In this document: piece after piece, positions 5,410 through 47,241 of the stretch
Numbering within the stretch: the first letter of the stretch is position 1
Layout: each line of letters starts with the position of its first letter
Source: Thermoanaerobaculia bacterium
GTDB lineage: Bacteria; Acidobacteriota; Thermoanaerobaculia; Multivoradales; Multivoraceae
Assembly (NCBI GenBank): GCA_965116955.1
Contig: OZ220742.1
Span: forward strand, 4,303,079-4,367,078
Length of the DNA stretch: 64,000 nucleotides
Direction: 5' to 3'
The notes under the pieces: generated by a model
What the model was told of the DNA's origin: nothing
Database searches by the model: none
The model's input: the letters and a program-made list of their open reading frames with translations, nothing else
Program-made: the position numbers and the translations under genes

Positions 5410-7977
<2,568 letters not shown>

Positions 7978-8307
7978 TCAGCCGAGGGCCTGGGTAAGCG
8001 CCTCTTCGTGGTAGCCCACGATCAGCGTCCGCCCCACCCTGACCACCGGCGCCCGCAGGTTGCCCGTCGGGCCGAGCATCAGGTCGGGCGCGGCCGGGTC
8101 AGAGGCCGGCAGCTCCGTGTGCTTGCGGCCCTTGGCCACGTAGAGAGTCTGCGCGTCGGCGAGTAGCGCCTCCGCGTCGGCTCTCCCCAGCTTCCGGCTC
8201 GCCGGGGTTCTGTCCGCTATCTCCGTGCCGCGTGCGTCCATCAACTTGGACGTTCTCTTGCAGCTCGTTCAGCCGTTGCGGTGGTAGTACCAGTCGACTT
8301 TGCTCAT
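7978..8307 (-). CDS. ArsC/Spx-family thiol oxidoreductase, putative selenoprotein (in-frame TGA at 8271..8269 read as Sec)
   Basis: The track ORF 7978..8244 lacks the N-terminus. Reading the same frame upstream gives ATG(8307)-SKVDWYYHRNG-TGA-TSCKRTSKL-MDARG. This aligns by eye with the ArsC N-terminus (YHNPACGTSRNTLEMI) with the TGA at the catalytic Cys. AAGGAG lies 6 nt upstream of the ATG. The C-terminus NLRAPVVRVGRTLIVGY matches the ArsC RPIV block. Confidence 0.65.
8227..8264 (-). promoter_or_regulatory. bSECIS-like stem-loop immediately downstream of the in-frame UGA
   Basis: Minus-strand RNA has an upper stem CGUCCA(8252..8247)/UGGACG(8240..8235) and an apical loop AGUUGA containing GU. 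The lower stem is GCUGC(8264..8260)/GCGGC(8231..8227) with one G-U pair. The structure starts 4 nt after the UGA. Confidence 0.45.
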
Positions 8308-8372
8308 CTGTCTCTCCTTGAGGTGGGTTCGGCCACTCTAGCGCGGCAGAGGTGGGTGCGCCGGCGTCCCCG

Positions 8373-9851
8373 TCATGCTGGTGGTGCGTCGACCTCCCAG
8401 TCCTCGTTCACTCTCCGGCCGTAGTAGGGGTAGTAGTCCCAGGGCGCGGGCAGGCCCAAGGCCCGAGGATCGCCGGTCGCCGCGAGGTGGTTCATCAGGC
8501 GGTCCCGCAACTGCTCCAGGATCGGCCGTGACGACGAGTCGCTCGCGAGGTTGTTCAACTGGCCCGGATCGCTTCGCAGGTCGTAGAGCTCGTGCTCGGG
8601 CCGTGTCCCGAAGGAGAGCTCCGCCAGATGGTCGATCCCGGGCTCGTCTCGCGACTCCATCATCAGTGTCTTGGTCGGCGACGAATCGATCTCGCCATAG
8701 CGGATGCCCCTGGCGCAGTCCTTCGCGTTCGGCGAGCCTGAAGGCCAACGCGTCGGTTCGAAGTTCCGGATGTAGAGATGGCTCTCGGTACGAATCGCGC
8801 GGCAGGGATAGCCCTTGCCGCCGCGGCGGCAGCCGTCGTGCCGCTCCATCGCGATGAAGGCGGCGTCGCGGTCCGGCTCCACGCGGCCGCCTGCCGAAGT
8901 GGTGAGTAGCGGCAACAGACTGCCCGCCGTCATCTCCGCGGCCGGCTCGAGTCCGGCCGCCTCGAGGAAGGTCGGAGCCAGGTCGCTCAGGCTGACGAAG
9001 TCGTCGACGACCCGACCGCCGGGGATCGCCTCGCCCCAGCGAACCGCCAGCGGCACTCGGCTGCCGTAGTCGTACAGGCTGGCCTTGGCCCGCGGGAACG
9101 GCATGCCGTGATCGCTGGTGACGACGACCAGGGTGTTCTCGAGCTCCCCCGCCTGCTCGAGAAGCTCGAGCGCGGCCTCGACCCTGCCGTCGAAGCGCTC
9201 CACCTCGACGTAGTAGTCGAGAATGTCGTCGCGCACGATCGGATGGTCCGGGAGGTGCGGCGGGACGTCGACCTTCGCCGGATCCTTGCCCGACTCCTGC
9301 CCCGATCCCGCCGTGTAGGGACGGTGCGGGTCGTAGCTGCCGAGCCAGAAGCAGAACGGCTGGTCCCCATCCCGCGCATCGAGGAACTCCTCGAAGCCCC
9401 CGAACCTGTCTCCGGCCGGGTTCCGCGTTCTGCCGCCCGGCTCCAGCCGTCCCGGACCCCAACCCTTCAGGGTGTGGCCGATGGCGTAGCCCACCTGTTC
9501 CAGCATCTCCGTGTAGGTGGCGAACTTCGCCGGAAGGGTGCTGTGGATGTTCCCGGCCTCCTCGAGCCGCCAGATCGGCTGACCGGTTACGAGCGCGCTC
9601 CGCGAGGGCCCGCAGGTCGGTGCGTCGCAGAAGGCGTGCGGGAAGAGGACCCCCTCCGTCGCCACCCGGTCGAAGCCCGGAGTGCGCACGACGGGATCGC
9701 CTCCGGCGCCGGTGTGCAGCCAGGACTGGTCATCCGAGATGCAGAGCAGGATGTTCGGCGCTCTGCCTGCCTGCGGACGTCTCGCGGACAGCGCCGCCGC
9801 GCTCAGAATCGAAGCGGAAGAGGCCAGGAATGTACGACGGGTCTGCTTCAC
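8373..9851 (-). CDS. Sulfatase (Cys-type, formylglycine-dependent), secreted
   Basis: 492 aa. Signal MKQTRRTFLASSASILSAAAL, sulfatase signature CGPSRSALVTGQ, and blocks NILLCISDDQS and VVTSDHG. Confidence 0.9.
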   Translation of the reverse strand: MKQTRRTFLASSASILSAAALSARRPQAGRAPNILLCISDDQSWLHTGAGGDPVVRTPGFDRVATEGVLFPHAFCDAPTCGPSRSALVTGQPIWRLEEAGNIHSTLPAKFATYTEMLEQVGYAIGHTLKGWGPGRLEPGGRTRNPAGDRFGGFEEFLDARDGDQPFCFWLGSYDPHRPYTAGSGQESGKDPAKVDVPPHLPDHPIVRDDILDYYVEVERFDGRVEAALELLEQAGELENTLVVVTSDHGMPFPRAKASLYDYGSRVPLAVRWGEAIPGGRVVDDFVSLSDLAPTFLEAAGLEPAAEMTAGSLLPLLTTSAGGRVEPDRDAAFIAMERHDGCRRGGKGYPCRAIRTESHLYIRNFEPTRWPSGSPNAKDCARGIRYGEIDSSPTKTLMMESRDEPGIDHLAELSFGTRPEHELYDLRSDPGQLNNLASDSSSRPILEQLRDRLMNHLAATGDPRALGLPAPWDYYPYYGRRVNEDWEVDAPPA

Positions 9852-9916
9852 GCCATGACTCTAGCGGCTCGATCCAGCCCTATAGTAGGGCGGGTTCTCG
9901 AACGTCGGGAGGCAGC

Positions 9917-11320
9917 ATGCACAGGTTCCCAGTCGCTGCATCGCTCATCGCTCTGTCGGTGCTCGTCGCCGCGCCCGCTCCCGCGCAGGACCGGCCTCCC
10001 AACATTCTCTTCATCGCCGTCGACGACCTGAACGACTGGGTCGGCCACCTGGCCGGCCACCCGCAGGCGAGCACGCCGAACATCGATCGCCTGGCGCGCC
10101 GCGGCGTGTCGTTCACCAGGGCCTATGCGCCCGCGCCCCTCTGCAACCCCTCCCGCGTCAGTCTGCTGTCGGGCGTCCTGCCATCGAAGTCCGGCGTCTA
10201 CGGCAACGGCGAGCGGTTTCGCGAGAAGTTGCCCGACGCGGTGACCCTGATGCAGCACCTGAAGGCGCACGGCTACTCCACGCAGGGCGGCGGCAAGATC
10301 TTCCACGGAAGAACCGCCGGTGACCCGGACTCCTGGGACGAGTACTACACACCCGCCCGGCCGAGGGGCGCCCGGCAGATCGGCGAACGGCAGGAACACG
10401 TCCCGGCGTCCGCGTGGGCGCCCTGGGGACCACTCGACGTGGACGACGCCGAGATGTTCGACGTCAAGGTCGTGGACTGGACGATCGGCGAACTGAACAA
10501 GCCGCACGAGAAGCCCTTCTTCCTGGCCTGCGGCTTCACCAAGCCTCACCTGCCCTGGTACGTCCCGAGGAAGTACTTCGACCTGCACCCACTCGAGGAG
10601 ATCGAGCTGCCGGCGACCCTGGAGGACGACCGGGACGACCTTCCCGCGTTCGGGAAGAAACTCGCGGCGGAGGTCTACGCGGTCTCGGACTCCCGCAACT
10701 TCAGCAGGCACGGCGAGGACCACGCCATGGTCCTGAAGCACGACCAGTGGCACCGGGCGGTGCAGAGCTACCTGGCCACGATCAGCTTCGTCGACGCCCA
10801 CGTCGGCCGCCTGCTGGACGCCCTGGACGCGAGCGAGCACGCCGGCAACACGATCGTCGTGCTCTGGGGCGACCACGGCTGGCATCTCGGCCAAAAGCAG
10901 CACTGGCGGAAGCACGCACTCTGGGAGGTGGCCACCCGCACGACGCTCATCATCTCGTCGCCGGCGGCAACCCGGCGTGGCGCCACGAGTCCACGCCCGG
11001 TCAGCCTGATCGACCTCTACCCCACCCTGGTCGAGCTTTCCGGAGTCCCCGGCCGCAGCGGACTGGACGGCCAGAGCCTCGTGCCCCTGCTCGAGAACCC
11101 CGCGTCGGAGTGGCCGCGACCGGTACTGACGACCTACGGCTACGGAAACCACTCCGTCCGCACGGAACGCTGGCGCTACATCGAGTACCACGACGGCGGC
11201 CAGGAGCTGTACGACCACGATGCCGACCCGAACGAGTGGACCAACCTGGCTTCGCGGGCGGAGTACGCCGCCGTAGTCGAGGAACTCGCGGCCTTCGTGC
11301 CCAGGACGAGCGCCCGCTAG
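9917..11320 (+). CDS. Sulfatase (Cys-type; iduronate-2-sulfatase-like), secreted
   Basis: Start placed at ATG 9917 (MHRFPVAASLIALSVLVAAPAPAQ signal peptide, GGGAGG 5 nt upstream), in frame with ORF 9620..11320. CNPSRVSLLSG signature, NILFIAVDDLNDW, LWGDHGWHLG. Confidence 0.9.
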   Translation: MHRFPVAASLIALSVLVAAPAPAQDRPPNILFIAVDDLNDWVGHLAGHPQASTPNIDRLARRGVSFTRAYAPAPLCNPSRVSLLSGVLPSKSGVYGNGERFREKLPDAVTLMQHLKAHGYSTQGGGKIFHGRTAGDPDSWDEYYTPARPRGARQIGERQEHVPASAWAPWGPLDVDDAEMFDVKVVDWTIGELNKPHEKPFFLACGFTKPHLPWYVPRKYFDLHPLEEIELPATLEDDRDDLPAFGKKLAAEVYAVSDSRNFSRHGEDHAMVLKHDQWHRAVQSYLATISFVDAHVGRLLDALDASEHAGNTIVVLWGDHGWHLGQKQHWRKHALWEVATRTTLIISSPAATRRGATSPRPVSLIDLYPTLVELSGVPGRSGLDGQSLVPLLENPASEWPRPVLTTYGYGNHSVRTERWRYIEYHDGGQELYDHDADPNEWTNLASRAEYAAVVEELAAFVPRTSAR

Positions 11321-12823: not shown

Positions 12824-12845
12824 CCGGGGGTCTTCTGACCCCCGG
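12824..12845 (+). terminator. Perfect 9-bp hairpin downstream of the small lipoprotein gene (candidate terminator, no U-tract)
   Basis: CCGGGGGTC-TTCT-GACCCCCGG, 39 nt after the stop at 12785. Confidence 0.3.
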
Positions 12846-13006
12846 TAGACGCGCGCCGGAGGCGGCCAGAAAAGCGGGCCGCGAAGCGGCCACGATTCTC
12901 AGCGCCTGCCCGGTCCTTGACAAATAGGACCAATACGATCCACTATCGCCGGACTCGCCGAAAGGCAACGTCGTCGACTGGCGAAACTGGAGGGTGGGCG
13001 AAGCGA

Positions 13007-14398
13007 ATGAAGACGAACGCTCGAAAGATCGGAACCTGGCCGCTGGTGCTGCTCGTGGCATTGGCGGCCCTCGTCCTGCCGGCCGGCACCGCGGCCGCGC
13101 AGGACTCCGCGGAGGAGCGCATCGCGACGCTCGAGGAGCAGATCGAGACCCTGCGCCGGGCCATCGCCGAACTCGCCGCCCAGCCGCCTGACGAGCGCGT
13201 GACCGAGCTGGAACGACAGATCGAAGTCCTCGCCGAGGGAATCGAGAAGCTCAACCTCGGCTCCGCGGCGGCCGAGGGAACCGAAGCCGATGAAGGCCTC
13301 TACGGCCTGGGCATCGCCGCCTCGAAGGTCTACCGCGTGGAGGAAGGCCTGTCGATCGGCGGCTACGGTGAGATGGTCTTCGAGAGCTACGCCAGCAAGC
13401 GCGAAGGCGGCGAACCGACCGGCTTTGCCGACACGATCGACTTCCTGCGCGCCATCGTCTACGTCGGTTACAAGTTCGACGACCGGTGGGTGTTCAACTC
13501 GGAGATCGAGTTCGAGCACGCCTCGACGTCGAAATCCGGCAGCGCCTCGGTCGAGTTCGCGTACGTCGACTACCTGTGGAAGCCCCAGTTGAACTTCCGC
13601 ACGGGGATCCTGCTGCTCCCCATGGGCTGGCTCAACGAACTGCACGAGCCAACCCTCTTCCCGAGCGCGGAGCGCCCCTACGTGGAACAGGTCCTGATCC
13701 CCAGTACCTGGCGCGAGAACGGCGCCGGCATCTTCGGCGACGTCGGGCCCTTCTCCTACCGGAGCTACGTGGTCAACGGCCTGAAGGGCGCCGGCTTCAC
13801 GTCCAATGGCCTCCGCGGCGGGCGCCAGAAGGGCGCCAAGGCCCAGGCCGAGGACTTCGCCTGGACCGGGCGACTGGACTACACCGCGACGCCCGGACTG
13901 ATCGTCGGTGTCTCCGCCTACGTCGGCAACTCCGGCCAGGGACTCCACGACCCCGCCGGCGCCACGATCGACGCCCGCACCGAGATCCTCGACTTCCACT
14001 TCGACTGGAGCCACCGGGGCTTCCGGTTGCGCGGCCTGTGGACACAGGGCGACGTCGGCGACGCGGCCCGCCTGAACGCGGCTCTGGGCATCACCGGCAG
14101 CGACTCGATCGGCGAACGGCTGGAGGGGCACTACGTCGAGCTGGCCTACGACGTGCTCGCCCGTCGCGGCGGGCGAGCTTCGCTGTCGCCCTTCGTCCGG
14201 GTCGAGGCGATCGACACCCAGGTTCGCGTGCCGGCCGGATTCGAGAGCGACCCGATCTTCGATCGCGAGATCCTGACCTGGGGCGCCGCCTGGCAACCCA
14301 TCGACCGGCTGGTCTTCAAGGTCGGCTATCAGGACTGGACCAACCCCGGCGGCACCGGGTTCGACGAGTGGAACCTGGCCATGGGCTACCTGTTCTAG
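13007..14398 (+). CDS. Porin-like outer-membrane beta-barrel with N-terminal coiled coil
   Basis: Start set at ATG 13007 (MKTNARKIGTWPLVLLVALAALVLPAGTAAAQ signal). Heptad segment ERIATLEEQIETLRRAIAELA..LERQIEVLAEGIEKL. Alternating beta-strand pattern. C-terminal MGYLF (terminal Phe). Confidence 0.7.
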   Translation: MKTNARKIGTWPLVLLVALAALVLPAGTAAAQDSAEERIATLEEQIETLRRAIAELAAQPPDERVTELERQIEVLAEGIEKLNLGSAAAEGTEADEGLYGLGIAASKVYRVEEGLSIGGYGEMVFESYASKREGGEPTGFADTIDFLRAIVYVGYKFDDRWVFNSEIEFEHASTSKSGSASVEFAYVDYLWKPQLNFRTGILLLPMGWLNELHEPTLFPSAERPYVEQVLIPSTWRENGAGIFGDVGPFSYRSYVVNGLKGAGFTSNGLRGGRQKGAKAQAEDFAWTGRLDYTATPGLIVGVSAYVGNSGQGLHDPAGATIDARTEILDFHFDWSHRGFRLRGLWTQGDVGDAARLNAALGITGSDSIGERLEGHYVELAYDVLARRGGRASLSPFVRVEAIDTQVRVPAGFESDPIFDREILTWGAAWQPIDRLVFKVGYQDWTNPGGTGFDEWNLAMGYLF

Positions 14399-16026: not shown

Positions 16027-17541
16027 CTATCGCCTGAGCAGGGATACCGCAGCGATCATTCCCGGCAAGCCGGTCAGACCGCCGCCGGGATGGCAACCGG
16101 CGCCGCCCAGCCACAGGCCGTCGACGGGCAGCGGCTCGCCCGCCCAGGCCGACGCCGTCGGTCGAAGCCACAGGCTCTGGGACGGGTTCATCTCGCCGTG
16201 ATGGAGCCCGCCGGCGGTAGCGCCGTAGTCGGCCTCGAAGTCCGTGGGCAACAGCAGCGCGTGCTCCCGGACCAGGCCGCCGATGCCGGGCGCCCACCGC
16301 TCGAGTTCGGCCGCCACCCGGGCCAGGAGCTCCGGACGGCCCGCGTCCCAGCCGCCCTCGAACTCGAACGGCAGGTGGTGAACCGTCGCCAGCAGCAGGT
16401 GCCGGCCCGCGGGCGCGAGCGACGGATCAAGCGCCGTCGGCAACGCCGCCTCGATCCACGGACGGTCCGGCAGCCGGCCGTACTTCGCCGCGTCGGCCGC
16501 CCGCTCGATGTCGTCCGGCTGCTCCGCCAGCACGATCCGGCCGGTCAGGGCCGGCCGCTCCAGCCCGCGGAACTTCGGCAGCCCGTCAAGCGACAGGGCC
16601 AGTCTCGCCGCGGCGCCGCGGTACTTCACGTTGAGCAAGCGCCGCACGAAGCGCGGTTCGAGGAGCGGCGCGCCGATCAGATCGAGGAAGGTGACGGATG
16701 GAGTCCCGGTCGAGATGACGGCCCCGGCCTCGATCCGCTCGCCGCCCGCCAACCGCACGCCGGCGACGCGGCCCGAATCCACCAGAATTCGGGAGACGGC
16801 AGAGCCGGTCCGGATCTCCGCACCCGACGCCGCGGCCGAAGCGGCGAGGGCAGAGGCCAGAGCCCCGGCGCCGCCCTGCGCGCGCACCACCGGCGCCAAC
16901 CGGTCGGAACCGCCCAAAGCGCAGTGGTAGAGCAACGGCCAGCCGGTGCCGTTGGCGCGGGGCCCCAGACCGGTCGCGGGGAGCGCCACTCCGCAAAGAC
17001 CCGCCAGCAGCGACGGACTCTCGAAGCGCTCGCGCAGCGACTCGTCGAGCGGCGAGGACAACGCCCGCAGCACTTCCGGTGCGATGAGGAGACCCCCCAT
17101 GTCGGCGAGCTCCAACGGCCTGGAGAGAAGCGGCTCCAGCGCCGCCGCGCGCTCGGCCAGCTCGAACACGAAGCCGGGCCAGGCAGCCGCGTCCCGGCGG
17201 CTGACCCGGCCCAGCCCCTCCACAGTGCGCGCGACCTCGGGCCAGAGCACGACGGCGCCCGAGTCGGCAGTCGTCGGAACCGCGGCTACCGCGGGCGCTT
17301 CGATCAACTCCAGTCCATGCTCGCCAAGCTCCAGCTCCGCCATCACGGAACGGCGGAACATCCCCAGGTCGTGGCTGCCCGCATCGACCCGGTGGCCGGG
17401 GATGAGCTCCCGCGTGGACGCCAGGCCGCCGAGCTCCGGGCGCGCCTCGAGCAGAACGACATCGCGCCCCGAACGCGCCAGGAGCGCCGCGGCGACCAGT
17501 CCGTTGTGGCCGCCGCCGACGATCGCTACCCGTCCGTTCAA
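16027..17541 (-). CDS. NAD(P)/FAD-dependent oxidoreductase, phytoene desaturase (CrtI)-like family
   Basis: Start proposed at TTG 17541..17539, overlapping the upstream stop (TTGA). This gives MNGRVAIVGGGHNGLVAAALLARSGRDVVLLE (GxGxxG). The remaining 213 upstream codons of the 717-aa ORF overlap the preceding gene out of frame. Confidence 0.8.
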   Translation of the reverse strand: MNGRVAIVGGGHNGLVAAALLARSGRDVVLLEARPELGGLASTRELIPGHRVDAGSHDLGMFRRSVMAELELGEHGLELIEAPAVAAVPTTADSGAVVLWPEVARTVEGLGRVSRRDAAAWPGFVFELAERAAALEPLLSRPLELADMGGLLIAPEVLRALSSPLDESLRERFESPSLLAGLCGVALPATGLGPRANGTGWPLLYHCALGGSDRLAPVVRAQGGAGALASALAASAAASGAEIRTGSAVSRILVDSGRVAGVRLAGGERIEAGAVISTGTPSVTFLDLIGAPLLEPRFVRRLLNVKYRGAAARLALSLDGLPKFRGLERPALTGRIVLAEQPDDIERAADAAKYGRLPDRPWIEAALPTALDPSLAPAGRHLLLATVHHLPFEFEGGWDAGRPELLARVAAELERWAPGIGGLVREHALLLPTDFEADYGATAGGLHHGEMNPSQSLWLRPTASAWAGEPLPVDGLWLGGAGCHPGGGLTGLPGMIAAVSLLRR

Positions 17542-19199
17542 GGCGTTTCCCCACCGCCGACGGCGGCCGCGTCGGCATCGCGCAGATCGTCCAGCACCCG
17601 GAGCGCGGCCAACCGGGCCGGGCCGCCGGAAATGCCGCCGCCGAACTGCGTCGACGAGCCGCAGAGGTAGTAGCCGGGCAACGGCGTCCGGAAGGCCGCC
17701 GCGGCCGGGTCGGGCCGCAGCAGGAACAACTGCGACAGCCGCAACTCGCCGTGGAAGATGTTGCCGCCCGGGATGCCGGCGATCGCCTCGATGTCCGGCG
17801 GCACGAGCACCTGCCGGTGCAGGATCTGGTCCTCGATGCCGGGCGCGTACTCGGCGAGGGTGCGCACCACAGCATCGCCGAACGCCTCGCGCTGGCCGTC
17901 GTCCCAGGAGCCGGCCGCCAGTTCGTACGGCGCGTACTGGACGAAGCATGACAGGACATGCTTGCCCGGCGGGGCCATGTCCGGATCGAGGACGGACGGG
18001 ATGATCATGTCGATGAACGGCCGCTCCGAGAAGCCGCCGTACTTCGCGTCGTCGTAGGCGCGGTCTACGTAGTCGAGACCCGGGGCGATCGTGATCCCGC
18101 CCGAGAGGTGGGGTCCGGGCGCCGGCATGCACTCGAAGCGCGGCAGCCCGGAGATGGCGAGGTTCACCTTGCCGGCGCAACCGCCGCTCTGCCAGCGCGC
18201 CGCCCGTTCGACGAGTCCGGCGCCGGCGCCGCCGGGGACGTCCTCCGGGTCGAGCAGGCGGCCGAGGCTGATCTGCGGCGCCGCCGACGACAGGACGACG
18301 CCGGCACGCAACTCGTCGCCGTTCGCCAGCACCACGCCGGCCGCCCGGCCGTCACTGGCCAGCACGCGCGCCACCGGGCTGTGGGTCCGGATCTCGGCGC
18401 CGTGGCTTTGCGCCGCCCTGGCGATCGTCGCCGCCACCGCGCCGGTGCCGCCCTTCTGGAAGCCCCACTCCCGGTAGACCCCGTCGACCTCGCCCATGTA
18501 GTGGTGCAGCAGCACGTACGCCGAGCCCGGGGTGCGGGGCGACAGCATGGAGCCGATGATGCTGGAACTCGAGAGCGCGGACTTCAGCACGTCGGACTCG
18601 AACCACTGGCCGAGGAAGTCGGCGGAACTCATCGTCAGCATCTGCACGAAGGTGCGCAACCGGGCCGCCGGCAGGTCGAGGAAGTAGCGCGCGATGTCGG
18701 CGACCTCGGCCGACACCTCGACGTCCAGGTGCTCCGCGCTCTCGGCGACGCGATCACCGATCGCCGCGGCCAGTTCGTCGGGCGCCGCCCGCTGCAGCCG
18801 GTACATCAGGTGGCCCATGCGGCGCATCTCGAGCTTGTACTCGAACAGCGCCTCGGCATCGCGCCGCGAGTGGCGGGCGATGTGCCGGTAGGTCCGCTGC
18901 GGATCCGCCTCGCGGAACAGGCAGTCGCCCCCCGGCAGCGGGTTCAGGGTGCTCGCGGTGGGAACGAGGAACAGGCCGTGGCGCACCAGGTCGAGTTCGT
19001 GGATGACCTCCGGTCGCAACAGCGAAACGAGGTAGGAGAACACGCTGAACCGGAAGCCCGGGAAGGCCTCCTCGCTACGCGTGGCGCCGCCGATCTCGGG
19101 AGAGGACTCCAGCACAACGACGTCGAGGCCGGCTCGGGCGAGGTAGGCCGCGGCCACCAGGCCGTTGTGGCCGGCGCCGACAACGATCGCATCGGTCAT
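17538..19199 (-). CDS. NAD(P)/FAD-dependent oxidoreductase, phytoene desaturase (CrtI)-like family (paralogue)
   Basis: Start ATG 19199..19197 (MTDAIVVGAGHNGLVAAAYLARAGLDVVVLE) overlaps the upstream stop (ATGA). C-terminal YLCGSSTQFGGGISG is typical of the family. Confidence 0.85.
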   Translation of the reverse strand: MTDAIVVGAGHNGLVAAAYLARAGLDVVVLESSPEIGGATRSEEAFPGFRFSVFSYLVSLLRPEVIHELDLVRHGLFLVPTASTLNPLPGGDCLFREADPQRTYRHIARHSRRDAEALFEYKLEMRRMGHLMYRLQRAAPDELAAAIGDRVAESAEHLDVEVSAEVADIARYFLDLPAARLRTFVQMLTMSSADFLGQWFESDVLKSALSSSSIIGSMLSPRTPGSAYVLLHHYMGEVDGVYREWGFQKGGTGAVAATIARAAQSHGAEIRTHSPVARVLASDGRAAGVVLANGDELRAGVVLSSAAPQISLGRLLDPEDVPGGAGAGLVERAARWQSGGCAGKVNLAISGLPRFECMPAPGPHLSGGITIAPGLDYVDRAYDDAKYGGFSERPFIDMIIPSVLDPDMAPPGKHVLSCFVQYAPYELAAGSWDDGQREAFGDAVVRTLAEYAPGIEDQILHRQVLVPPDIEAIAGIPGGNIFHGELRLSQLFLLRPDPAAAAFRTPLPGYYLCGSSTQFGGGISGGPARLAALRVLDDLRDADAAAVGGGETP

Positions 19200-33018: not shown

Positions 33019-34211
33019 CAGAGACCCCAGCGCTGCAACTCGCGCCGCCGGCCACTCTCCTCCGCGACGGTGTCGAGTCTGTCCGCCATGCGCAGCAGCG
33101 CCCTGTTCATCGCTTCCATCCGCTCCGGCGCGTCGTGCAACTGCCGCCGCGCCGCCGCCAGTTCGCCGGCGACCGCCCGCGTGCCCTCGCTGTACCGGTC
33201 GATGTGCGCCCGCAACGAGACCAGGGCGTCGGTCGCATTGCGGAAGCCGTTTGCCGCGCGTGCGTTCGCCTGGGAGAAGCGGCGGTTCTCGTCGAGGATC
33301 TCCGTCAACCGCGCCACCGCGCCCTGGTTCTGCTCCATGACCCGCAACTGGCTCGCCTCGATGCGCCGCAGACCCTCCGCGACGGACAGGAACTCCCGCG
33401 TCAATCCCCGGAACTGCTCCGACGTCGGCTCGATCAACTCCTCGATGAACTCCCGCCGGAAGTCGACCGAGCGGAAGTTCGCGAGCAGTTGCTGAAGAGA
33501 ATCGCTCACAGCCTGCGACTCGGAGACGAAGCGCTCCCGTTGCGCCTGAATGTCGCGGACCGCCCCGGCTGCGGCTTCATCGACCTCGCCGACCCGCTGC
33601 CGGAGCGCCCCAAACCGGGCAGCGCCGCCCTCCAGGTGTTCGAGCTGCCGTTCCAGCGCGGCGCCCGCGGCCCCCACGCCCCGATCGAGCTGCTCGAAAA
33701 CCCGCTTCGCTTCCGCGCGGAACTGCTGGAACTCGTCGATCGAGTACTCCATCTCGGCCCGCAGGCGGCGGTTCGCCCGGGCCAGGTCTTCACGCGCCCT
33801 CGCTTCCGCCTCCTCCTCGTCCTGCGGCTGGTTCAGGAGGATGCGCCCGGCCAGGCCGAGGATCGTGCTGGTCAGCGCCAGGCCGAAGTTCGTGATGATG
33901 GAGCTGGTCGCCCCCTCGGTGTTGAACTGGTACAGCGAGATGGCCAGCGAGATCAGCGTGTAGAGGAAGCCCAGGTAGTAGAAGTTGTCGCCCGCGAAGT
34001 CGACCTTCGGCCGCAGTTCCGGCCACTCCACGAGCAGGCAGGCGTAGCTGCCCATCAGGACGACCGGCAGCACCACGGCCAGAAGCGGGCTCGCCGTCAA
34101 CGACTTCATCAGCAGGATGAGGAGGCCCCCGCCGACGAAGAAGGTCAGGAACAGCCCGCGGCCGCTCCGCGGCTCGGCATCCGTCGACCGTTGCCGCAGT
34201 ACGACGGGCAT
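33018..34211 (-). CDS. Cluster gene C: MotA/ExbB/TolQ-like 4-TM protein with ~270-aa C-terminal coiled-coil tail, function unknown
   Basis: Start ATG 34211 (MPVVLRQRS) overlaps the gene B stop (ATGA). The last two TM helices are YYLGFLYTLISLAISLYQF and IITNFGLALTSTILGLAGRILL. They resemble the ExbB/MotA channel helices (LGxxGT.. and ALxTTxxGL). A heptad-rich Ala/Arg/Glu tail follows. Confidence 0.6.
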   Translation of the reverse strand: MPVVLRQRSTDAEPRSGRGLFLTFFVGGGLLILLMKSLTASPLLAVVLPVVLMGSYACLLVEWPELRPKVDFAGDNFYYLGFLYTLISLAISLYQFNTEGATSSIITNFGLALTSTILGLAGRILLNQPQDEEEAEARAREDLARANRRLRAEMEYSIDEFQQFRAEAKRVFEQLDRGVGAAGAALERQLEHLEGGAARFGALRQRVGEVDEAAAGAVRDIQAQRERFVSESQAVSDSLQQLLANFRSVDFRREFIEELIEPTSEQFRGLTREFLSVAEGLRRIEASQLRVMEQNQGAVARLTEILDENRRFSQANARAANGFRNATDALVSLRAHIDRYSEGTRAVAGELAAARRQLHDAPERMEAMNRALLRMADRLDTVAEESGRRRELQRWGL

Positions 34212-35080
34212 CAGTTCACGCCGTCGACACGCACGACCCGGTTCAGGGTGCCTCCCTGGTCTTCGATCCACAGCTGCCAGAAGTCGATCAGGCCGCGGGT
34301 GCCGTCCAGACGCTGGTGGGCGGCGCGCTGCACGAACAGGACCTCGACCGCGGTTCCCCGCAGGTCCGTGCCCAGCGCGCCGGCGCCGTTCGTCGCGGCG
34401 AAGGCGTCGTAGTCGACCGCCTGGCGAAAGAAGGAGAGGTTGCGGGTGTTCTGCATCAGGTCGGAGACCAGGATCAGACGTTTCGGAAGGTCCGCGTACT
34501 CGTACCGGCCAAGCACGGATACCGCCACACTCTGCACACTCTCCATGAGCGGCGAGGTCGGCGCCGCGTCCCGGCCGAGCAACTCGGCGAAGAGACGATC
34601 GAGCGGCCGCTCGAAGCGCTCCTCCAGGCGTCGCCGGATGAGCCGGGGGTTCTCCGTCCACTCGCTGGCCTGGTCGGGATCGCCGGGATGGCAGACCGAG
34701 AGCAGCGGGGCCCCGATCTCGTCCCCCACCGGCTTCGCCTCGTAGGCCAGGACCATCTCGTCCTCCCGGCTGCCTGCTATGTACTCGTCGAGGTGCGAAA
34801 GCACGTCGGCGCGGCTGATCGCACCGATCTGGTCCGTCACATCGATCAGGATCGCGGTCAGGGCCGCGGGGCCGGCCTCTGGACAACCCGTCTCGGGGTT
34901 TCGATCCGGCGGCTTCGGGGCGAAGATCGTCAGACGCGCGCCCACGACCAGCAGTACGAGCGCGGCGACCGCGACGCCTCCGCCGATCGCCAGATCCCGC
35001 GGCGAAAGGTCGCCCCGCCGCGAACGGCGGCGCCGCCGTCTACGCGCCGCCGCCATCCGCAGGAACGGGCTCCGCCGCAT
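34211..35080 (-). CDS. Cluster gene B: single-pass membrane protein with vWA-like domain (degenerate MIDAS), function unknown
   Basis: 289 aa (alternative ATG at 35056). Arg-rich N-terminus, TM helix LAIGGGVAVAALVLLVVGA, then a beta-alpha-beta pattern: TAILIDVTDQI .. SPLMESV .. KRLILVSDLMQN, reminiscent of vWA DxSxS..T..D. Confidence 0.55.
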   Translation of the reverse strand: MRRSPFLRMAAARRRRRRRSRRGDLSPRDLAIGGGVAVAALVLLVVGARLTIFAPKPPDRNPETGCPEAGPAALTAILIDVTDQIGAISRADVLSHLDEYIAGSREDEMVLAYEAKPVGDEIGAPLLSVCHPGDPDQASEWTENPRLIRRRLEERFERPLDRLFAELLGRDAAPTSPLMESVQSVAVSVLGRYEYADLPKRLILVSDLMQNTRNLSFFRQAVDYDAFAATNGAGALGTDLRGTAVEVLFVQRAAHQRLDGTRGLIDFWQLWIEDQGGTLNRVVRVDGVN

Positions 35081-36422
35081 CGGACATCGAGCCCTCGAGG
35101 TCCAGCCGCGCCCGGGTCTGTTCCCACTCCCCGTGTACGCGGCCCAGCGCCGACTCGTACTGTTCGTTCAACCCGTCCATATCCACGTCTTCAACGGCAA
35201 CTGGCTCGCGGCGCCGCCGGTGCGGCGCCGCCGGGTCCATCCTCCAGGGCCTGCTGTACGCCTCGGGCACACCGCGGTCGAAACGCACCGAGCGGTTCGC
35301 CTCCCGGTACTCCTCGATCAGCATCGTCCCGAAGCGCTGCAACTGTTCGACATGGGCGTCGAATCCGGCCAGCAGCTTGGTCTCGCTCTCGAGTGCGCGC
35401 CGCCGCTCGACTGGCTGGCTCTTCGCCTGGTGCGCCGTTCGTCCGATCGCGTCCAGACCGTCTTCCCGGATGGTGCGCAACTGCTCCACCACGTCCTGCC
35501 AGAGGTCGTCGTAGTCGGCCCGCGCGTCCTCCATCTTGCGGTGCTTCCGGGAGTAGCCCGGATAGGAATCGCCGAATAGCTTGCGGCCGTCGAAGAAGGC
35601 GACGCCGGAGAAGAAGAAACCGAGCACGAACAGAAGCCACGATTCCGCGTCTTGCAGCCCCAAGGGCGAAGCCTGGAAGCGGCTCAGCGCCTCGGCGCCG
35701 ATGTTCTCGACCAGATCGGCCGAGGCATCCCGGAAGTGCGCGAGCCCCAGGTTCAGCACGAGGGCGGTTCCAAGCCACCCCAGGATTGCCAGCACTCCCA
35801 CGGCCTTCAGGAGCACTTGGATGTGGCTCACGTAGCGGCTGACCGGGCCGAAGAACAGAGCCGGCAGCACGAGGTTCACGACGCTGAAGCCCAACGCCAG
35901 ACCCCATCCGCCAACCAGACCGCCCTCGCTGCCGACCGCCAGAAAGGCGCCGTTCAGCCCGCTCTCGATCACGAACAGCAGGACGATCAGACTCACCAGC
36001 AACAGCGTGGTCCGCTGGCTCACGTAGTCCGGCTCGCGGTCCAGTCCGTTGCGGTGCTTGAAGTCGAAGAAGTCGCGCCGTTTGCGCTCGAACTCGTGCA
36101 GGCTCGCCTTGAGCGCCTGCAGTTCGCTCTGCTCGACTTCCCTGAACTCGGTCGCGGCCTTGCGCGCCGCCGACTCCAGGTCTCCCGCGAGCACCGCCTG
36201 GTCGAGCTGATCGAGGTGACGGTCGACCTGCTCGAGCTGCTCGTCGCGGATCCTCACCGCGTCGTTCTTCTTCGCCTCGATGAACTCTTCGATCTCCGTC
36301 TGGCCGGGGTCGTCCGTCGCGTTCAGCGGCGGCATGCCACGCTCTCCCGCCCGGCGTCCCAGCCGCTCCGGCTCGATCTCCGCCCGCAGATCCTCGATCA
36401 GCAGTTCCGGGAAGACCTTCAT
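35040..36422 (-). CDS. Cluster gene A: membrane protein with N-terminal coiled coil, 4 predicted TM helices and C-terminal helical domain, function unknown
   Basis: 460 aa. Starts 18 nt after the PQQ-ADH stop. TM candidates: TTLLLVSLIVLLFVIESGL, WGLALGFSVVNLVLPALFF, VLLKAVGVLAILGWLGTALVLNLGL, WLLFVLGFFFSGVAFF. No catalytic motif recognised. Confidence 0.6.
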   Translation of the reverse strand: MKVFPELLIEDLRAEIEPERLGRRAGERGMPPLNATDDPGQTEIEEFIEAKKNDAVRIRDEQLEQVDRHLDQLDQAVLAGDLESAARKAATEFREVEQSELQALKASLHEFERKRRDFFDFKHRNGLDREPDYVSQRTTLLLVSLIVLLFVIESGLNGAFLAVGSEGGLVGGWGLALGFSVVNLVLPALFFGPVSRYVSHIQVLLKAVGVLAILGWLGTALVLNLGLAHFRDASADLVENIGAEALSRFQASPLGLQDAESWLLFVLGFFFSGVAFFDGRKLFGDSYPGYSRKHRKMEDARADYDDLWQDVVEQLRTIREDGLDAIGRTAHQAKSQPVERRRALESETKLLAGFDAHVEQLQRFGTMLIEEYREANRSVRFDRGVPEAYSRPWRMDPAAPHRRRREPVAVEDVDMDGLNEQYESALGRVHGEWEQTRARLDLEGSMSDAAEPVPADGGGA

Positions 36423-36440
36423 CGCCGGCTGGAAGGGTCC

Positions 36441-38111
36441 CTACTCCGCGGGCAACGCGAACGTGAACAGCGCCCGGCCGGCGGCGATCGTCACGTGCTG
36501 CTGACCGCCCGCTTCGTAGCTGATCGGCGCCGCGAAGACGTTGCCGCCAAGACGACGGTGCCAGAGTTCCTCGCCCGTCTCGGCGTCGAGGGCGTAGAAG
36601 ATGCCCGCCACGCTGCCGCCGAACACCAGGCCGCCCTTCGTGGCGAGGAGGCCGGACGTGGACCGGGGCTGCACGTGGTACTCCCACTTCCGGTCGCCGG
36701 ACAGCGGATCGATCGCCCGCACCGCGCTGACGTACTGGTCGCCGGGTCCGGCCGGCTTGCCGTAGCCGCCGACGAAGAGTTCACCCTCTTCGTACTCGGC
36801 CTCGGCCATGTAGTAGAGCATCTCGGCGTCGTAGGCCTGGATGTAGAAGAGGCCGGTGTCGGGGCTGTAGGTCGGCGAGAACCAGTTCGCGGCGCCGCCG
36901 ATCGTCGGCGCGACGAGGGTGCCCTCCTCGCTGGGGAACATGTTCGGCACCCGGATCGGGCGGCCGGTGTCCTGGTCGATCCCCTCGGCCCAGGTTTGCC
37001 GTGCGAACTCGCGCGCGAACAGGAACTCTCCGGTCTCGCGGTCCAGCAGATAGAAGAAGGCGTTCCGGTTGGCGAAGGCCATCAGCTTGCGCTTCTCGCC
37101 CTGGTACTCGGCGTCGAACAGAATCGGAACCTGGCAGGCGTCCCAGTCGTGGACGTCGTGGGGCGTGAACTGGAAGGCCCAGACGATCTCGCCCGTGTCC
37201 GGACGGATCGCCAGCACGGAGTCCGAGTGCAGGTTGTCGCCCTCGCGGACCTCGCCGTTCCAGTCCGGCCCCGGATTGCCCGTGCCCCAGTAAAGGAGAT
37301 CGAGCTCGGGGTCGTAGGAGCCCGTCATCCAGGTCGGCGCACCGCCCGTCTTCCAGGAATCGCCCTCCCAGGTCTCGTTCCCGGGTTCGCCCGGTCCCGG
37401 GATCGTGTAGGTACGCCAGCGGAGTTCGCCGGTGTCCGCGTCGTAGGCATCGAGGAAGCCCCGGATGCCGTACTCGCCGCCGCCGATCCCGGTGATCACG
37501 AGATCACGGACGATCATCGGTGCCGCCGTGATCGACTGCCCCTTGCGCGGCTCGCCCACCTCCGTGTCCCAGATCACGGCGCCGGTCTTGGCGTCCAGGG
37601 AGATCAGGTGCGCGTCGATCGTGCCCATGTAGAGCCGGTCGCCGCGAACGGCAACGCCCCGGTTCTGCTTGCCGCAGCAGAGGGCGAGCTGATCCGGCAG
37701 CTCGTGAGCGTAGGACCAGTACTGCTGGCCGGTGCGGGCATCCAGCGCGATGACGACGTTGTCCGGCGTCGTCGCGTACATCACTTCGTCGATCACCAGC
37801 GGCGTCGTTTCCACGCGCCCGAGTGTGGGAAGCTGACGAACCCAGCGAAGCTCCAGGTCCGCCGCGTTCGAACCGTCGATCTCGTCGAGGCGGCTGAAAC
37901 GCTGGCTGCTGTACTCACCCGAGTACATGAGCCAGTTGCCCGGGTCGTCCGACGCCGCCTTCAACTGTTCGTAGGAAACCCCGCGCTGAGCGGACGCGCC
38001 CGTGGCCGCGAACAGGAACGCCAGGAAAGCGACCGCGCCGACCGGCCTCTTCAGAGCCGGCGCTGCGCGCCGGATGCCGGCGGGGATGCCGGCGCACCCA
38101 GTGTTTGTCAT
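36441..38111 (-). CDS. PQQ-dependent dehydrogenase, methanol/ethanol (quinoprotein alcohol dehydrogenase) family
   Basis: Start ATG 38111, 2 nt after the cytochrome stop; an alternative CTG at 38054 gives MKRPVGAVAFLAFLFAATGASA. Motifs: NWLMYSGEYSSQRFS, vicinal Cys LALCCGKQNRGVA, W-repeat propeller, HDVHDWD. Confidence 0.9.
   Translation of the reverse strand: MTNTGCAGIPAGIRRAAPALKRPVGAVAFLAFLFAATGASAQRGVSYEQLKAASDDPGNWLMYSGEYSSQRFSRLDEIDGSNAADLELRWVRQLPTLGRVETTPLVIDEVMYATTPDNVVIALDARTGQQYWSYAHELPDQLALCCGKQNRGVAVRGDRLYMGTIDAHLISLDAKTGAVIWDTEVGEPRKGQSITAAPMIVRDLVITGIGGGEYGIRGFLDAYDADTGELRWRTYTIPGPGEPGNETWEGDSWKTGGAPTWMTGSYDPELDLLYWGTGNPGPDWNGEVREGDNLHSDSVLAIRPDTGEIVWAFQFTPHDVHDWDACQVPILFDAEYQGEKRKLMAFANRNAFFYLLDRETGEFLFAREFARQTWAEGIDQDTGRPIRVPNMFPSEEGTLVAPTIGGAANWFSPTYSPDTGLFYIQAYDAEMLYYMAEAEYEEGELFVGGYGKPAGPGDQYVSAVRAIDPLSGDRKWEYHVQPRSTSGLLATKGGLVFGGSVAGIFYALDAETGEELWHRRLGGNVFAAPISYEAGGQQHVTIAAGRALFTFALPAE
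38071..38103 (+). repeat. 33-nt GC-rich hairpin-forming repeat, copy 1
   Basis: cggatgccggcggggatgccggcgcacccagtg. It matches 43035..43070 apart from one substitution, a 3-nt indel and the terminal base. It contains GCCGGC-N6-GCCGGC. Confidence 0.7.
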
Positions 38112-38113
38112 CG

Positions 38114-38944
38114 TCACTCCGGCCGCAGTGAGTAGAGGTAAGCGACGAGATCGTCGAGATCCCGACCGCGGAAGAAGCTGGCGAGGGGCGGCATCAACGA
38201 CTCCTCCGGTTTGTCGATGGCTGCCAGATCCGTCTTCTGGAAGGACCTGAGGTTCTCGAACTCGTCGAAGAGCTGGATCGAAAAGCGGTCCTCGTTCCGC
38301 AACAGACCGCGCACGACGTTGCCGTCGTCCGTCCTGACCTCGACCGTCCGGTAGTCCGCGTCCATCGCCGCGGAAGGATCGGTAATCGATGCGCTGATGT
38401 GGTCCGGCGCCCGCCGCCAGCCCAGGTCGGACAGATCGGGACCGAGCCGGCCGCCCGAGCCGTTCAGGCGGTGGCAGTCGGAGCAGGAGCCGCGGCTCAT
38501 GTACAGCATCCGTCCACGTCGCGGATCGCCCGGCACCTCTTCCTCGCCGCCGCCGCGGCTGAGCGACCGCACGTAGGACACGACCTGCCAGATCGACTTG
38601 TCCGGCTGGTAGATGCCGCCCATGCCGGTGTTCGGGATGCCGGTCAGGATGTTGCGGAACAGTGCCGCATCGCTGCTGCCGTGACGGAACACGCCGCGCG
38701 TCAGGTCCGGGCCGTCGCCACCGGTGCCGTCCGCGCCGTGGCAGAGCGAGCAACTGCGGCGGAACACCTTGGCTCCGGCCTCGACGTCCGCTTCGGTCGT
38801 GTGCGGATTCTCCTGAACACGTTCCTGGAGCGCCCTGGAGAGCACGTTCTGGGCGCCCAGGCCGTCGGCCAACCAGAGGCTCGACGCGAGGAGAACCGCC
38901 GTTGGAAAGAAGCCTCGCCTGCGTATCGATCCAACCGGAAACAT
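38114..38944 (-). CDS. Dihaem c-type cytochrome (second domain of the Planctomycete/Verrucomicrobia haem-binding type)
   Basis: Start ATG 38944 (MFPVGSIRRRGFFPTAVLLASSLWLA). Two CxxCH sites (CSLCH, CSDCH). C-terminal LVAYLYSL. Confidence 0.85.
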   Translation of the reverse strand: MFPVGSIRRRGFFPTAVLLASSLWLADGLGAQNVLSRALQERVQENPHTTEADVEAGAKVFRRSCSLCHGADGTGGDGPDLTRGVFRHGSSDAALFRNILTGIPNTGMGGIYQPDKSIWQVVSYVRSLSRGGGEEEVPGDPRRGRMLYMSRGSCSDCHRLNGSGGRLGPDLSDLGWRRAPDHISASITDPSAAMDADYRTVEVRTDDGNVVRGLLRNEDRFSIQLFDEFENLRSFQKTDLAAIDKPEESLMPPLASFFRGRDLDDLVAYLYSLRPE

Positions 38945-39123
38945 GCCGCCGAGCGTAGCACTGCGATCTGGCCCGCAGCCGCAACCCGAAGCCCCTTGCG
39001 CCGTATAGTCGGGTACTGTCGAAACCATCGCGGTCACCGAGTGCAACGCCCTGAGCTGTAAACGCATCCGGCGGGCGCAGTGTTTCCACGAACACGACTC
39101 AACCCGCTCTCAAGGACCTGGAT

Positions 39124-40701
39124 ATGAACCGGATTCCCCTGCTCCGCCCCGCGACCACGGTCGTCGCCGCCGCGGTGCTCGCCATCCCCGCAGCGAGCCA
39201 CGCCCTGAACCTGGACCAGCCCACGTTCGTCGACGACATCGCGCCGATCCTCCACGAGAACTGCGCTTCCTGCCACCAGCCGGATGAGATAGCGCCGATG
39301 TCGCTGCGCACCTACCGCGAGGTGCGCCCCTGGGCGCGCTCGATCGCCCGGGCGGTCGAGAACCGCGACATGCCGCCCTGGGACGCCGACCCGGGCTACG
39401 GCCCCTTCACGAACGACATCTCCCTGAGCGACGCCGAGATCGAGGCGATCACGAACTGGGCCGGTAGCGGCGCTCCCCGCGGCGACGGTGACGAACCCGT
39501 CTACGAACCGCCGGCAAGTGCCCGTCAGGGTGAGTGGGCCTTCGGCGAACCGGACTGGGTCTACGAGTTCGATCCCTTCAAGGTCGCGGCCGACGGACCC
39601 GACGAGTTCGCCATCATCCCGGTCGACACCGGTTGGGATCAGGACCGCTGGATTCGCGCCGTCGAGGTTCAGCCCGGCGACCGCGAAGTCGTCCACCACT
39701 TCATCCTCTGGCGCGCCGCCCCGGGCGGCGAGGTCCAGGACGCCTGGATCGACGCCTGGGCCGCCGGTGCCACGGCCAACGAGTTCCCTTCCGGCACAGC
39801 GCGCCTGGTGCCCAAGGGCCAGAACCTGCTCGGCGACTTCCACTACCACCCGAACGGCACCGCCGCGACCGACAAGACGCGCATCGGCATCTGGTTCGCC
39901 GAGCCTGAGGAGGTCGAGAAGGAGTTGATCAATCTCTGGGTCATGAACTCCACGTTCAGGATCCCCGCCGGCGACCCGAACTACCAGGCGCGCGCCAACC
40001 ACGTCTTCACCGAGGACGTCGTCATCCGCTCCCTGGCTCCCCACATGCACTACCGCGGCAAGGACATGAAGTACACCGCGCACCTGCCCGACGGCGGCGA
40101 AAAGGACCTGCTCAGCGTCAGCCGCTACGACTTCAACTGGCAGACCGGCTACAACTTCGTCGAACCTGTCGCCCTGCCGGCCGGCACCCGAATCGAGGTC
40201 ACCGCGCACTGGGACAACTCGGCCGACAACCCTCACAACCCCGACCCGACGATCGACGTCACCTGGGGCACCGACTCGACCGACGAAATGCTGATCGGAT
40301 TCGTCGACTTCGTGGCCGCCGAGGGCGTCAGTCCCAAACCGGCCAGCCCGGTGCTCGCGAAGCTGGCCGAGCTCGCCAAGACCCATCCGGGCCAGGCGTG
40401 GCGCTTCGACGTACAACGCCAGCCCGGCAAGGGACCCGAGCCGACCGCCATGCTCCTGCCCCGCGGCGGCGTCCCCGGCGGCTGGTTCGTCCAGTTCGGC
40501 ACCCTCGTGCTGCCGGCGCCGATCGTCGACATCGTCTGGGACGGCAACGACGTGACCGCCACCGCGCAGACGCCCGGCAACACGATGCAGCTCAAGGGTT
40601 CCATCCAGGAGGACGGCACCCTGCGAATGGACATGGGACCGGGCGAGATGGTCGGCACGCCGGCCGCGAACGAGACCCCGGCCACCCTGCCGACCGGATA
40701 G
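39124..40701 (+). CDS. Haem-c domain fused to PHM/DBH-like type II copper monooxygenase fold (paralogue 1, with ~115-aa C-terminal extension)
   Basis: 525 aa, signal peptide, CASCH haem site in DDIAPILHENCASCH. Putative Cu ligands VHHFILW, GDFHYHPNG, APHMHYRGK and STDEMLIGF parallel the PHM HH..H / HxH..M sites. Confidence 0.7.
   Translation: MNRIPLLRPATTVVAAAVLAIPAASHALNLDQPTFVDDIAPILHENCASCHQPDEIAPMSLRTYREVRPWARSIARAVENRDMPPWDADPGYGPFTNDISLSDAEIEAITNWAGSGAPRGDGDEPVYEPPASARQGEWAFGEPDWVYEFDPFKVAADGPDEFAIIPVDTGWDQDRWIRAVEVQPGDREVVHHFILWRAAPGGEVQDAWIDAWAAGATANEFPSGTARLVPKGQNLLGDFHYHPNGTAATDKTRIGIWFAEPEEVEKELINLWVMNSTFRIPAGDPNYQARANHVFTEDVVIRSLAPHMHYRGKDMKYTAHLPDGGEKDLLSVSRYDFNWQTGYNFVEPVALPAGTRIEVTAHWDNSADNPHNPDPTIDVTWGTDSTDEMLIGFVDFVAAEGVSPKPASPVLAKLAELAKTHPGQAWRFDVQRQPGKGPEPTAMLLPRGGVPGGWFVQFGTLVLPAPIVDIVWDGNDVTATAQTPGNTMQLKGSIQEDGTLRMDMGPGEMVGTPAANETPATLPTG
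39211..40330 (+). repeat. Tandem gene-duplication unit, copy 1 (approximate bounds)
   Basis: About 90% nucleotide identity by eye to 40868.. over the first ~270 nt (gaccagccca at 39214 vs 40871), lower afterwards. It also explains the repeated antisense peptide MRSDIGAISSGWWQEAQFSWRIGAMSST in the track. Confidence 0.8.
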
Positions 40702-40780
40702 GAGCGGCCAGGAAGAGGGCGGGGGGGCGTCCCGGCTACAATCCGAACCACATTTCGACCAGTCCCCGGAGAGCACCCAA

Positions 40781-44092: not shown

Positions 44093-44116
44093 CCGCGAGA
44101 TTGTACGCGCCGAAAC

Positions 44117-46195
<2,079 letters not shown>

Positions 46196-47194: not shown

Positions 47195-47241
47195 GCTGCT
47201 CCCGGTGGGTTCCGATTCGCGGCAGGTTCTATCATTCCGCC

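Follow-up and report, generated by a model that had tools for sequence, protein, structure and literature searches.

An in-frame UGA in an ArsC-like gene

The DNA analyzed here is a 64-kb stretch (referred to below as the window) that forms part of a 4,580,080-bp contig (ENA ERZ25072196) from a member of the Thermoanaerobaculia. Its reverse strand carries a small gene for an ArsC-like protein, which is flanked by a convergent lon gene and by a gene encoding a sulfatase. In the mechanical list of open reading frames (ORFs), this gene appears as an 88-aa ORF with a TTG start (7978..8244), while the gene call of the source record, expressed in window coordinates, extends from 7978 to 8241 and yields a product of 87 aa. 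Direct reading and translation of the reverse strand revealed a longer frame that begins with an ATG at 8307..8305, passes through a TGA at 8271..8269, and terminates with the stop codon at 7980..7978. The conceptual product comprises 109 codons, the TGA being codon 13, and its translation is MSKVDWYYHRNG*TSCKRTSKLMDARG... A previous sequence-only reading of the window had proposed precisely this arrangement, and when the sequence was re-read and translated, the coordinates, the frame, the ATG at 8307, the AAGGAG located 6 nt upstream of it, and the internal TGA were all found exactly as described. We therefore consider the reading frame to be established. The features of the gene are collected in Table 1.

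Table 1. Positions of the features of the ArsC-like gene in window coordinates
Feature	Position	Strand	Basis
Shine-Dalgarno-like AAGGAG	8314..8319	-	Direct reading; 6 nt separate AAGGAG from the ATG
Full CDS of the predicted ArsC-like selenoprotein (109 codons, UGA-13 among them), followed by its terminating TGA	7978..8307	-	Translation; NF041106 score
In-frame UGA, predicted Sec residue 13, first position of U-T-S-C	8269..8271	-	Comparative
Cys16 codon, proposed resolving Cys of UxxC	8260..8262	-	Cys in 80/80 loci (best 80 of 599); aligns with Spx C13
Signature G-P-T-G-N-L-R-A-P, residues 79-87	8047..8073	-	Columns invariant or nearly so in the family alignment
TTG (8244) and ATG (8241), false starts of gene callers	8239..8244	-	ORF list; public record
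Putative apical SECIS hairpin, loop AGUUGA at 8246..8241	8234..8253	-	MFE fold, covariation, RNAalifold
Extended two-tier stem-loop	8227..8264	-	MFE fold; lower stem 66% paired across the family

The sequence-only reading had also anticipated that standard gene callers would truncate this gene, which is borne out well beyond the 87-aa call of the source record: among the best 120 of 626 homologues retrieved by a protein search, most are fragments of 87-92 aa that start just past the UGA. The public calls lose the active site because the selenocysteine (Sec) codon resembles a stop codon. Both of the start codons chosen in the window, TTG 8244 and ATG 8241, fall inside the putative SECIS hairpin described below, in its loop and its 3' arm. 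Inspection of the surrounding genes revealed that the convergent lon neighbor is kept only among 12 close relatives, and no neighboring gene conserved across phyla recurs among the related loci. An apparent cluster of neighbors from 59 loci was discarded, as it proved to be an antisense translation of the ArsC-like gene itself.

Conservation of the UGA and its cysteine counterpart

A genome scan using one genome per species returned 599 confirmed matches, of which the best 80 were analyzed. In every one of these 80 loci, a TGA is present at exactly codon 13 and is flanked by D-W-Y-Y-H-R-N/K-G on its 5' side and by T-S-C on its 3' side. The TGA-containing loci span Acidobacteriota, Myxococcota, Gammaproteobacteria, Spirochaetes, "Entotheonella", Binatia, and Gemmatimonadota, among others. 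As judged by the loci closest to it, the window probably derives from a MAG of a sponge-associated acidobacterium. The 27 nt located 5' of the TGA exhibit codon periodicity, with entropies of 0.45, 0.19, and 0.91 at the first, second, and third codon positions, respectively. In 65 of 81 loci, a Shine-Dalgarno-like motif accompanies a start codon located 11-15 codons before the TGA; 57 of these have an ATG at a distance of 12-13 codons.

Full-length homologues are few among the best 120 of the 626, and the residue that they carry at the Sec site is C, W, or R. Inspection of the corresponding DNA clarified each of these classes. The Cys forms have genuine cysteine codons at the site, TGT in locus L086 and TGC in L089-L091; the DNA of the homologue P0040 has TGT. 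The "W" forms from JGI have TGA in their DNA, that of P0039 having been translated with code 4, while P0010 (L084) has CGA at the Sec codon. The full-length alignment of the ArsC-like protein takes in the Cys forms, and the Cys-containing orthologues that the sequence-only reading had suggested looking for do exist, with TGT or TGC at the Sec site. The same position aligns with C10 of Spx, with the Cys of YffB, and with Cys12 of E. coli ArsC, although this last alignment is weak (E = 0.14). As judged from the aligned sequences, the UGA at 8271..8269 corresponds to the redox Cys of the homologues, a correspondence that we regard as established, and the proposal that the UGA replaces a redox-active Cys to yield a UxxC motif is thus upheld.

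These comparisons bear directly upon the existing annotation. Were the public record correct, the product would be the 87/88-aa protein translated from ATG 8241 or TTG 8244, the TGA at 8271 would be a true stop, and the 12 codons upstream of it would be untranslated or a dead remnant. This is indeed the model that automatic calling produced for the source record and for most of the homologues listed, and the Sec machinery was not found within the 64-kb window. However, a true stop is difficult to reconcile with a TGA and a preceding DWYYHRN/KG segment that are conserved across phyla in 80/80 loci (the best 80 of 599), nor would it account for the coding periodicity of the upstream stretch, its own ATG and Shine-Dalgarno motif, or the existence of uninterrupted, full-length Cys forms. 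In addition, the bases just 5' of 8244 and 8241 contain no Shine-Dalgarno-like motif, both of these starts fall within the conserved hairpin, and, as judged from the structural model described below, an 87/88-aa fragment would be devoid of the active-site helix and of beta-1, the central strand of the fold. We therefore consider the public gene model to be very improbable.

A second concern is that the TGA could have arisen from a TGT or TGC codon of a Cys-type gene, either through an assembly or sequencing error or as a pseudogene mutation. A single base change would suffice, and point variants at this site do occur, as illustrated by the CGA of P0010. Arguing against such an origin, the same TGA is present in 12/12 independently assembled close relatives as well as in 68 more distant loci (together the best 80 of 599), and the reading frame is unbroken both before and after it. 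The probability of an error or a pseudogene is accordingly close to negligible.

A conserved hairpin downstream of the UGA

Bacterial Sec codons are described by a SECIS model with a loop of 3-9 nt, a stem of 4-16 bp, a G in one of the first two loop positions, a UGA-to-loop distance of 16-37 nt, and an MFE of ≤ -7.5 kcal/mol (PMC13188914). The MFE fold of 8275..8215 contains an apical stem in which CGUCCA (8252..8247) pairs with UGGACG (8240..8235) and a lower stem in which GCUGC (8264..8260) pairs with GCGGC (8231..8227). The loop is 6 nt in length with a G at its second position followed by a U, the stem has 6 bp in the window (6-7 in the family), 22 nt separate the UGA from the loop, and the energy is -8.4 kcal/mol for the apical hairpin alone or -12.8 kcal/mol for the two-tier form, all of which fall within the limits of the model. 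A seventh apical pair (8253/8234) is an A.C mismatch in the window, whereas it is G-C in the relatives, which have a 7-bp stem. As a single sequence, the hairpin is only weakly unusual in its stability (z = -2.0, with 7/200 shuffles folding as well), and consequently the case for a SECIS rests upon comparative data.

These data were derived from an ungapped 63-nt alignment around the UGA containing 81 sequences, 76 of them distinct. Across the 76 distinct sequences, pairing in the 7-bp apical stem (columns 22-28 against 35-41) reaches 97.2%, in comparison to 25-37% for controls with slid partner columns. Compensatory changes occur in four of the seven apical pairs, and the observed covariation score was reached by 0/500 shuffles. 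The RNAalifold consensus consists of the same 7-bp apical stem and no other structure. Most informative is the pair between the third position of an Ala codon, where changes are synonymous, and that of an Asp/Glu codon; this pair is found as G-C (43), C-G (12), G-U (5), U-G (5), and A-U (2). Two loop positions, G30 and U32, never vary, and U31 reaches at least 90% conservation. The spacing between the TGA and the hairpin is also constant across the family; in the window, the hairpin starts at +15 nt and its loop at +22 nt. The conservation of the apical hairpin in homologous genes, by which the sequence-only reading had proposed to judge it, is thus established, and the aligned sequences support its identification as a putative bacterial SECIS-type element. 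The two-tier description fared less well. Both tiers were reproduced by the MFE fold, but pairing in the lower one amounts to only 66% over the family, and therefore its role is uncertain and the two-tier form is weakly supported; we take the lower tier to be lineage-specific, if with some uncertainty.

The hairpin was also compared with four Cys-form homologues, a small sample in which it decays, in line with expectation, to 7, 6, 5, and 2 of the seven pairs. The AGUU at the start of the loop is gone in three of the four, two of which have lost the loop G itself. The closest Cys form still has all seven stem pairs. It should be noted that the stem sequence is partly fixed by the conserved peptide A-S-K-F-[LM]-[DE]-A, which imposes a coding constraint. 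When compared with the E. coli fdhF-type SECIS and the bSECISearch consensus, the hairpin shares the location within the coding sequence just 3' of the UGA, the 6-nt loop, the G-U at loop positions 2-3, the 6-7-bp upper stem, the 22-nt spacing, and an MFE below -7.5 kcal/mol, while its sequence is unrelated to that of fdhF and no bulged U is evident. No Rfam family matched the window at the gathering threshold or the surroundings of the site at E ≤ 10.

The Sec decoding machinery was sought in the window and in the related loci. ARAGORN detected no tRNA genes in the 64-kb window, Pfam searches of ~40 ORFs identified no SelA, SelB, or SelD, tblastn with the E. coli SelA, SelB, and SelD yielded no match to the window or to the 81 related loci, and the machinery was not found in the flanks of those 81 loci. 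Two scans of the window for a second TGA-interrupted gene with coding-like GC3 on both sides also found none. The candidate from the first scan, at 32241, was rejected as an antisense shadow frame, and that from the second (43088..44116 plus 44120..46195) as two separate genes that share a frame by chance. The second scan did recover the ArsC-like gene itself.

If the UGA is read through, it might nonetheless be decoded as something other than Sec, for example by a near-cognate or suppressor tRNA inserting Trp, Cys, or Gly or through a reassigned UGA, with the hairpin serving solely to stimulate read-through. The lack of detectable Sec machinery in the window is compatible with such a scenario, as is the fact that JGI pipelines translated the TGA of some homologues as Trp. 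However, TGA is the ordinary stop codon for 20/43 ORFs in the window, including lon and the ArsC-like gene itself, and therefore a global reassignment of UGA can be rejected and any recoding at 8271..8269 must be site-specific. Read-through without Sec is also at odds with the occurrence of a redox-active Cys at this site in the homologues, which is the classic Sec/Cys pairing, with a hairpin that fits the SelB-type SECIS model including its loop G-U, and with the curation of NF041106 (see below) as a selenoprotein family. We consider it quite improbable. Thus, the product of the gene at 8307..7978 on the reverse strand is very probably a selenoprotein of 109 residues that belongs to the ArsC/Spx/YffB superfamily, a member of NF041106 with Sec at the UGA 8271..8269, and, by analogy with characterized systems, the Thermoanaerobaculia host would be expected to insert selenocysteine.

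The decoding steps can be proposed from the established bacterial Sec mechanism. Translation would start at ATG 8307, and the hairpin at 8253..8234 would recruit the SelB-GTP-Sec-tRNA(Sec) complex while the UGA at 8271..8269 occupies the ribosomal A site, so that Sec13 would be inserted instead of termination. The terminal UGA at 7980..7978, which is without such a hairpin, would then end the protein.

Family, fold, and proposed redox function

With U read as C, the protein matches the NCBIfam model NF041106, "ArsC family (seleno)protein", with 95.7 bits (E = 2.2e-27, cutoff 85), residues 4-103 aligning with positions 1-106 of the 107 in the model. The match to Pfam PF03960 (ArsC) is borderline at 24.3 bits versus a cutoff of 24, and that to TIGR01617 (Spx/MgsR), at 19.6 bits, is below the cutoff of 75. 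A profile search of the PDB using the family ranked Spx first (E = 7e-9), followed by a putative S. aureus ArsC, YffB (3e-4), and glutaredoxins. The protein chosen for structure prediction was the true Cys homologue P0040, which is 50% identical to the window protein. Its AlphaFold model (pLDDT 92, pTM 0.84) contains a beta-alpha-beta core of the glutaredoxin type, and the CxxC lies where helix 1 begins, at its N-terminus. Foldseek searches with this model retrieved Spx, YffB, and ArsC-related proteins first and then glutaredoxins, with TM-scores of 0.5-0.58. The insert of the P0040 model contains a beta-hairpin (residues 55-68), and in the structures of Spx and ArsC the same insert is helical; this difference would explain the moderate TM-scores. 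The final Pro of the GPTGNLRAP signature occupies the place where proteins of the thioredoxin fold usually have their cis-Pro and may serve that role. Membership in this family and fold is established, and the earlier assignment to an ArsC/Spx-fold family therefore stands on the NF041106 and PF03960 scores, except that the nearest solved relatives are of the Spx type and not arsenate reductases.

Comparison with the named members of this group places the protein more precisely. It has the UxxC motif of NF041106 (ArsC_rel_Se_1) and, like that family, occurs in both Sec and Cys forms, and nothing of substance sets the window copy apart, its peculiarities being the A.C in place of G-C at the seventh SECIS pair and a Thr in place of Ala at residue 19. 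Spx, the redox-sensing regulator of B. subtilis that binds RNA polymerase (PDB 1Z3E, 3GFK, 6GHO), ranks first among the solved relatives in the profile search and is also the top Foldseek match; its C10-T-S-C13 aligns with U13-T-S-C16, and G-x-L-R-x-P is found in both proteins. Nevertheless, the TIGR01617 score is far below its cutoff, the TM-score is only 0.5-0.58, and the comparison with Spx gave no sign of RNA polymerase binding. YffB, a member of the ArsC family and putative glutathione-dependent thiol reductase (E. coli b2471; P. aeruginosa PA3664, PDB 1RW1), was a Foldseek hit as well, and the E. coli protein aligns over its whole length (hhalign E = 6e-5) with its single N-terminal Cys on the Sec position. 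It differs in having CxxI/K in place of UxxC, and thus has no resolving Cys, and in the absence of the GPTGNLRAP signature. The glutaredoxin-coupled arsenate reductase ArsC (R773; E. coli b3503) belongs to the same Pfam superfamily, PF03960, and its catalytic Cys12 is surrounded by an Arg60/Arg94/Arg107 triad. The hhalign match to E. coli ArsC is very weak (E = 0.14, probability 0.4%); only Cys12 aligns, the alignment stops before the Arg94 region, and the C-G-T-S of ArsC lacks the second Cys. Furthermore, the ars operon context of ArsC genes (arsR, arsB, acr3) was not encountered here, the neighbors in the window being lon and the sulfatase gene.

The placement of UxxC at the start of helix 1 in a thioredoxin-type fold suggests a redox cycle. 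Within the glutaredoxin-like core, Sec13 would be positioned at the start of the first helix with Cys16 one turn later, as is the case for C10-x-x-C13 in Spx. Sec13 would act as the nucleophile that attacks an oxidized substrate, and the resulting adduct would be resolved by Cys16, giving a selenenylsulfide. By analogy with its relatives, the chemistry is likely to be thiol/selenol-based oxidoreduction; both the catalytic cycle and any physiological role of the ArsC-like protein are extrapolated from these resemblances.

The family itself is not new, having been reported in 2008 and again in recent reviews. The GOS ocean metagenome study of 2008 listed "Arsenate reductase 2, cd03032, UxxC" with 42 sequences from 21 samples and 238 Cys homologues (PMC2398784), and the sequence-only reading was thus right in stating that marine metagenomes had yielded ArsC-like selenoproteins. 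A 2022 review, citing the GOS study, includes an "arsenate reductase-like protein, COG1393, UxxC" (PMC9312934), and a 2026 review ties the UxxC arsenate reductase-like family to NF041106 (PMC13188914). Judging from the UxxC motif and the Spx-type domain, the "Arsenate reductase 2" entry of the GOS study probably represents the NF041106 family. A search of the literature for selenocysteine in Acidobacteria from sponges, or in "Candidatus Multivorans", returned nothing useful. The window gene is a real, ordinary member of a catalogued and already curated family.

A more speculative reading, which we regard as unlikely but worth stating, is that the NF041106 proteins are neither arsenate reductases nor Spx-type regulators, but a structurally distinct branch that combines the glutaredoxin core with the beta-hairpin insert and has its own Sec-dependent redox substrate or sensing role. 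On this reading, many marine and sponge-associated lineages encode the branch almost always with Sec. If the proteins do form such a branch, the ArsC-like gene would open the way to a redox activity that is new. Irrespective of this reading, the corrected gene model has 109 aa with the predicted Sec at residue 13, in place of calls of 87-92 aa that are without the active site, and inventories of the redox proteins or the selenium use of this organism that rely upon the existing calls miss the ArsC-like selenoprotein. From its sequence, the gene would also predict a Sec-decoding trait in the source organism.

Gene neighbourhood of the ArsC-like gene

The stop codons of lon and the ArsC-like gene abut within the palindrome TGATCA (window 7975..7980). 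A convergent lon lies beside the ArsC-like gene in all 12 of the close Acidobacteriota relatives, at a distance of 4-234 nt, but is absent beside the other 68, more distant members of the 80 loci examined (the best 80 of 599 matches). Sulfatase genes, two of which lie on the other side here, also border the ArsC-like gene in a handful of unrelated lineages (5 lineage groups), without a common arrangement.

Features of the window
Feature	Position	Strand	Remark
lon	5410..7977	+	convergent with ArsC-like gene
ArsC-like gene	8307..7978	-	convergent with lon
Sulfatase gene	8373..9851	-	divergent pair, just upstream of selenoprotein gene
Sulfatase gene	about 9900..11320	+	divergent pair, just upstream of selenoprotein gene
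PQQ-type beta-propeller dehydrogenase gene cluster	36444..39095, 44120..46195, 47038..48543	-, -, +	
Long ORFs, coding-like GC3, no Pfam match	12839..14395, 16090..17667, 39055..40698, 40556..42019	+	
Long ORFs, coding-like GC3, no Pfam match	33021..34886, 35043..36440	-	

Other coding regions of the window

The PQQ-type dehydrogenase cluster is accompanied by zinc alcohol dehydrogenase, alpha/beta-hydrolase, and short-chain dehydrogenase genes, and looks like an alcohol/aldehyde oxidation region. Here, one PQQ dehydrogenase gene runs in the same frame as the alpha/beta-hydrolase gene that follows it, with a single TGA between them (43088..46195, minus strand), an arrangement that resembles a selenoprotein signature. 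We rejected a single selenoprotein gene and judged these to be two genes, because the hydrolase forms a Pfam domain of its own and no Cys/Sec context is seen at the junction. At E <= 1e-5, Pfam gave no match for six long ORFs between 12839 and 42019; part of this set may consist of shadow frames in the 69% G+C sequence, and part of uncharacterised genes.

Homologues of the ArsC-like protein

In the confident AlphaFold model (m50964afa8218) of the Cys-form homologue P0040, residues 55-68 form a beta-hairpin within the insert that splits the glutaredoxin core into two halves, a place occupied by helices in Spx and ArsC. Foldseek TM-scores of the model against Spx and ArsC were only 0.5-0.58. At the Sec/Cys codon, the full-length, 66% identical homologue P0010 (L084:433-762, JGI 3300007134) carries CGA (Arg), and its locus retains the 7-bp stem of the apical SECIS hairpin with a CGUGGC loop rather than AGUUNN. 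P0010 could be a decaying copy, a genuine Arg variant, or a sequencing error. P0039 (L085:1501-1848, JGI 3300002734) has Trp at the Sec position in the database protein and TGA in the DNA, an artefact that arises when TGA is translated with genetic code 4. The Trp residues at this position in P0041, P0090, and P0092 probably have the same origin. Such Trp-form database entries could mislead alignments of the NF041106 family, to which the ArsC-like protein belongs.
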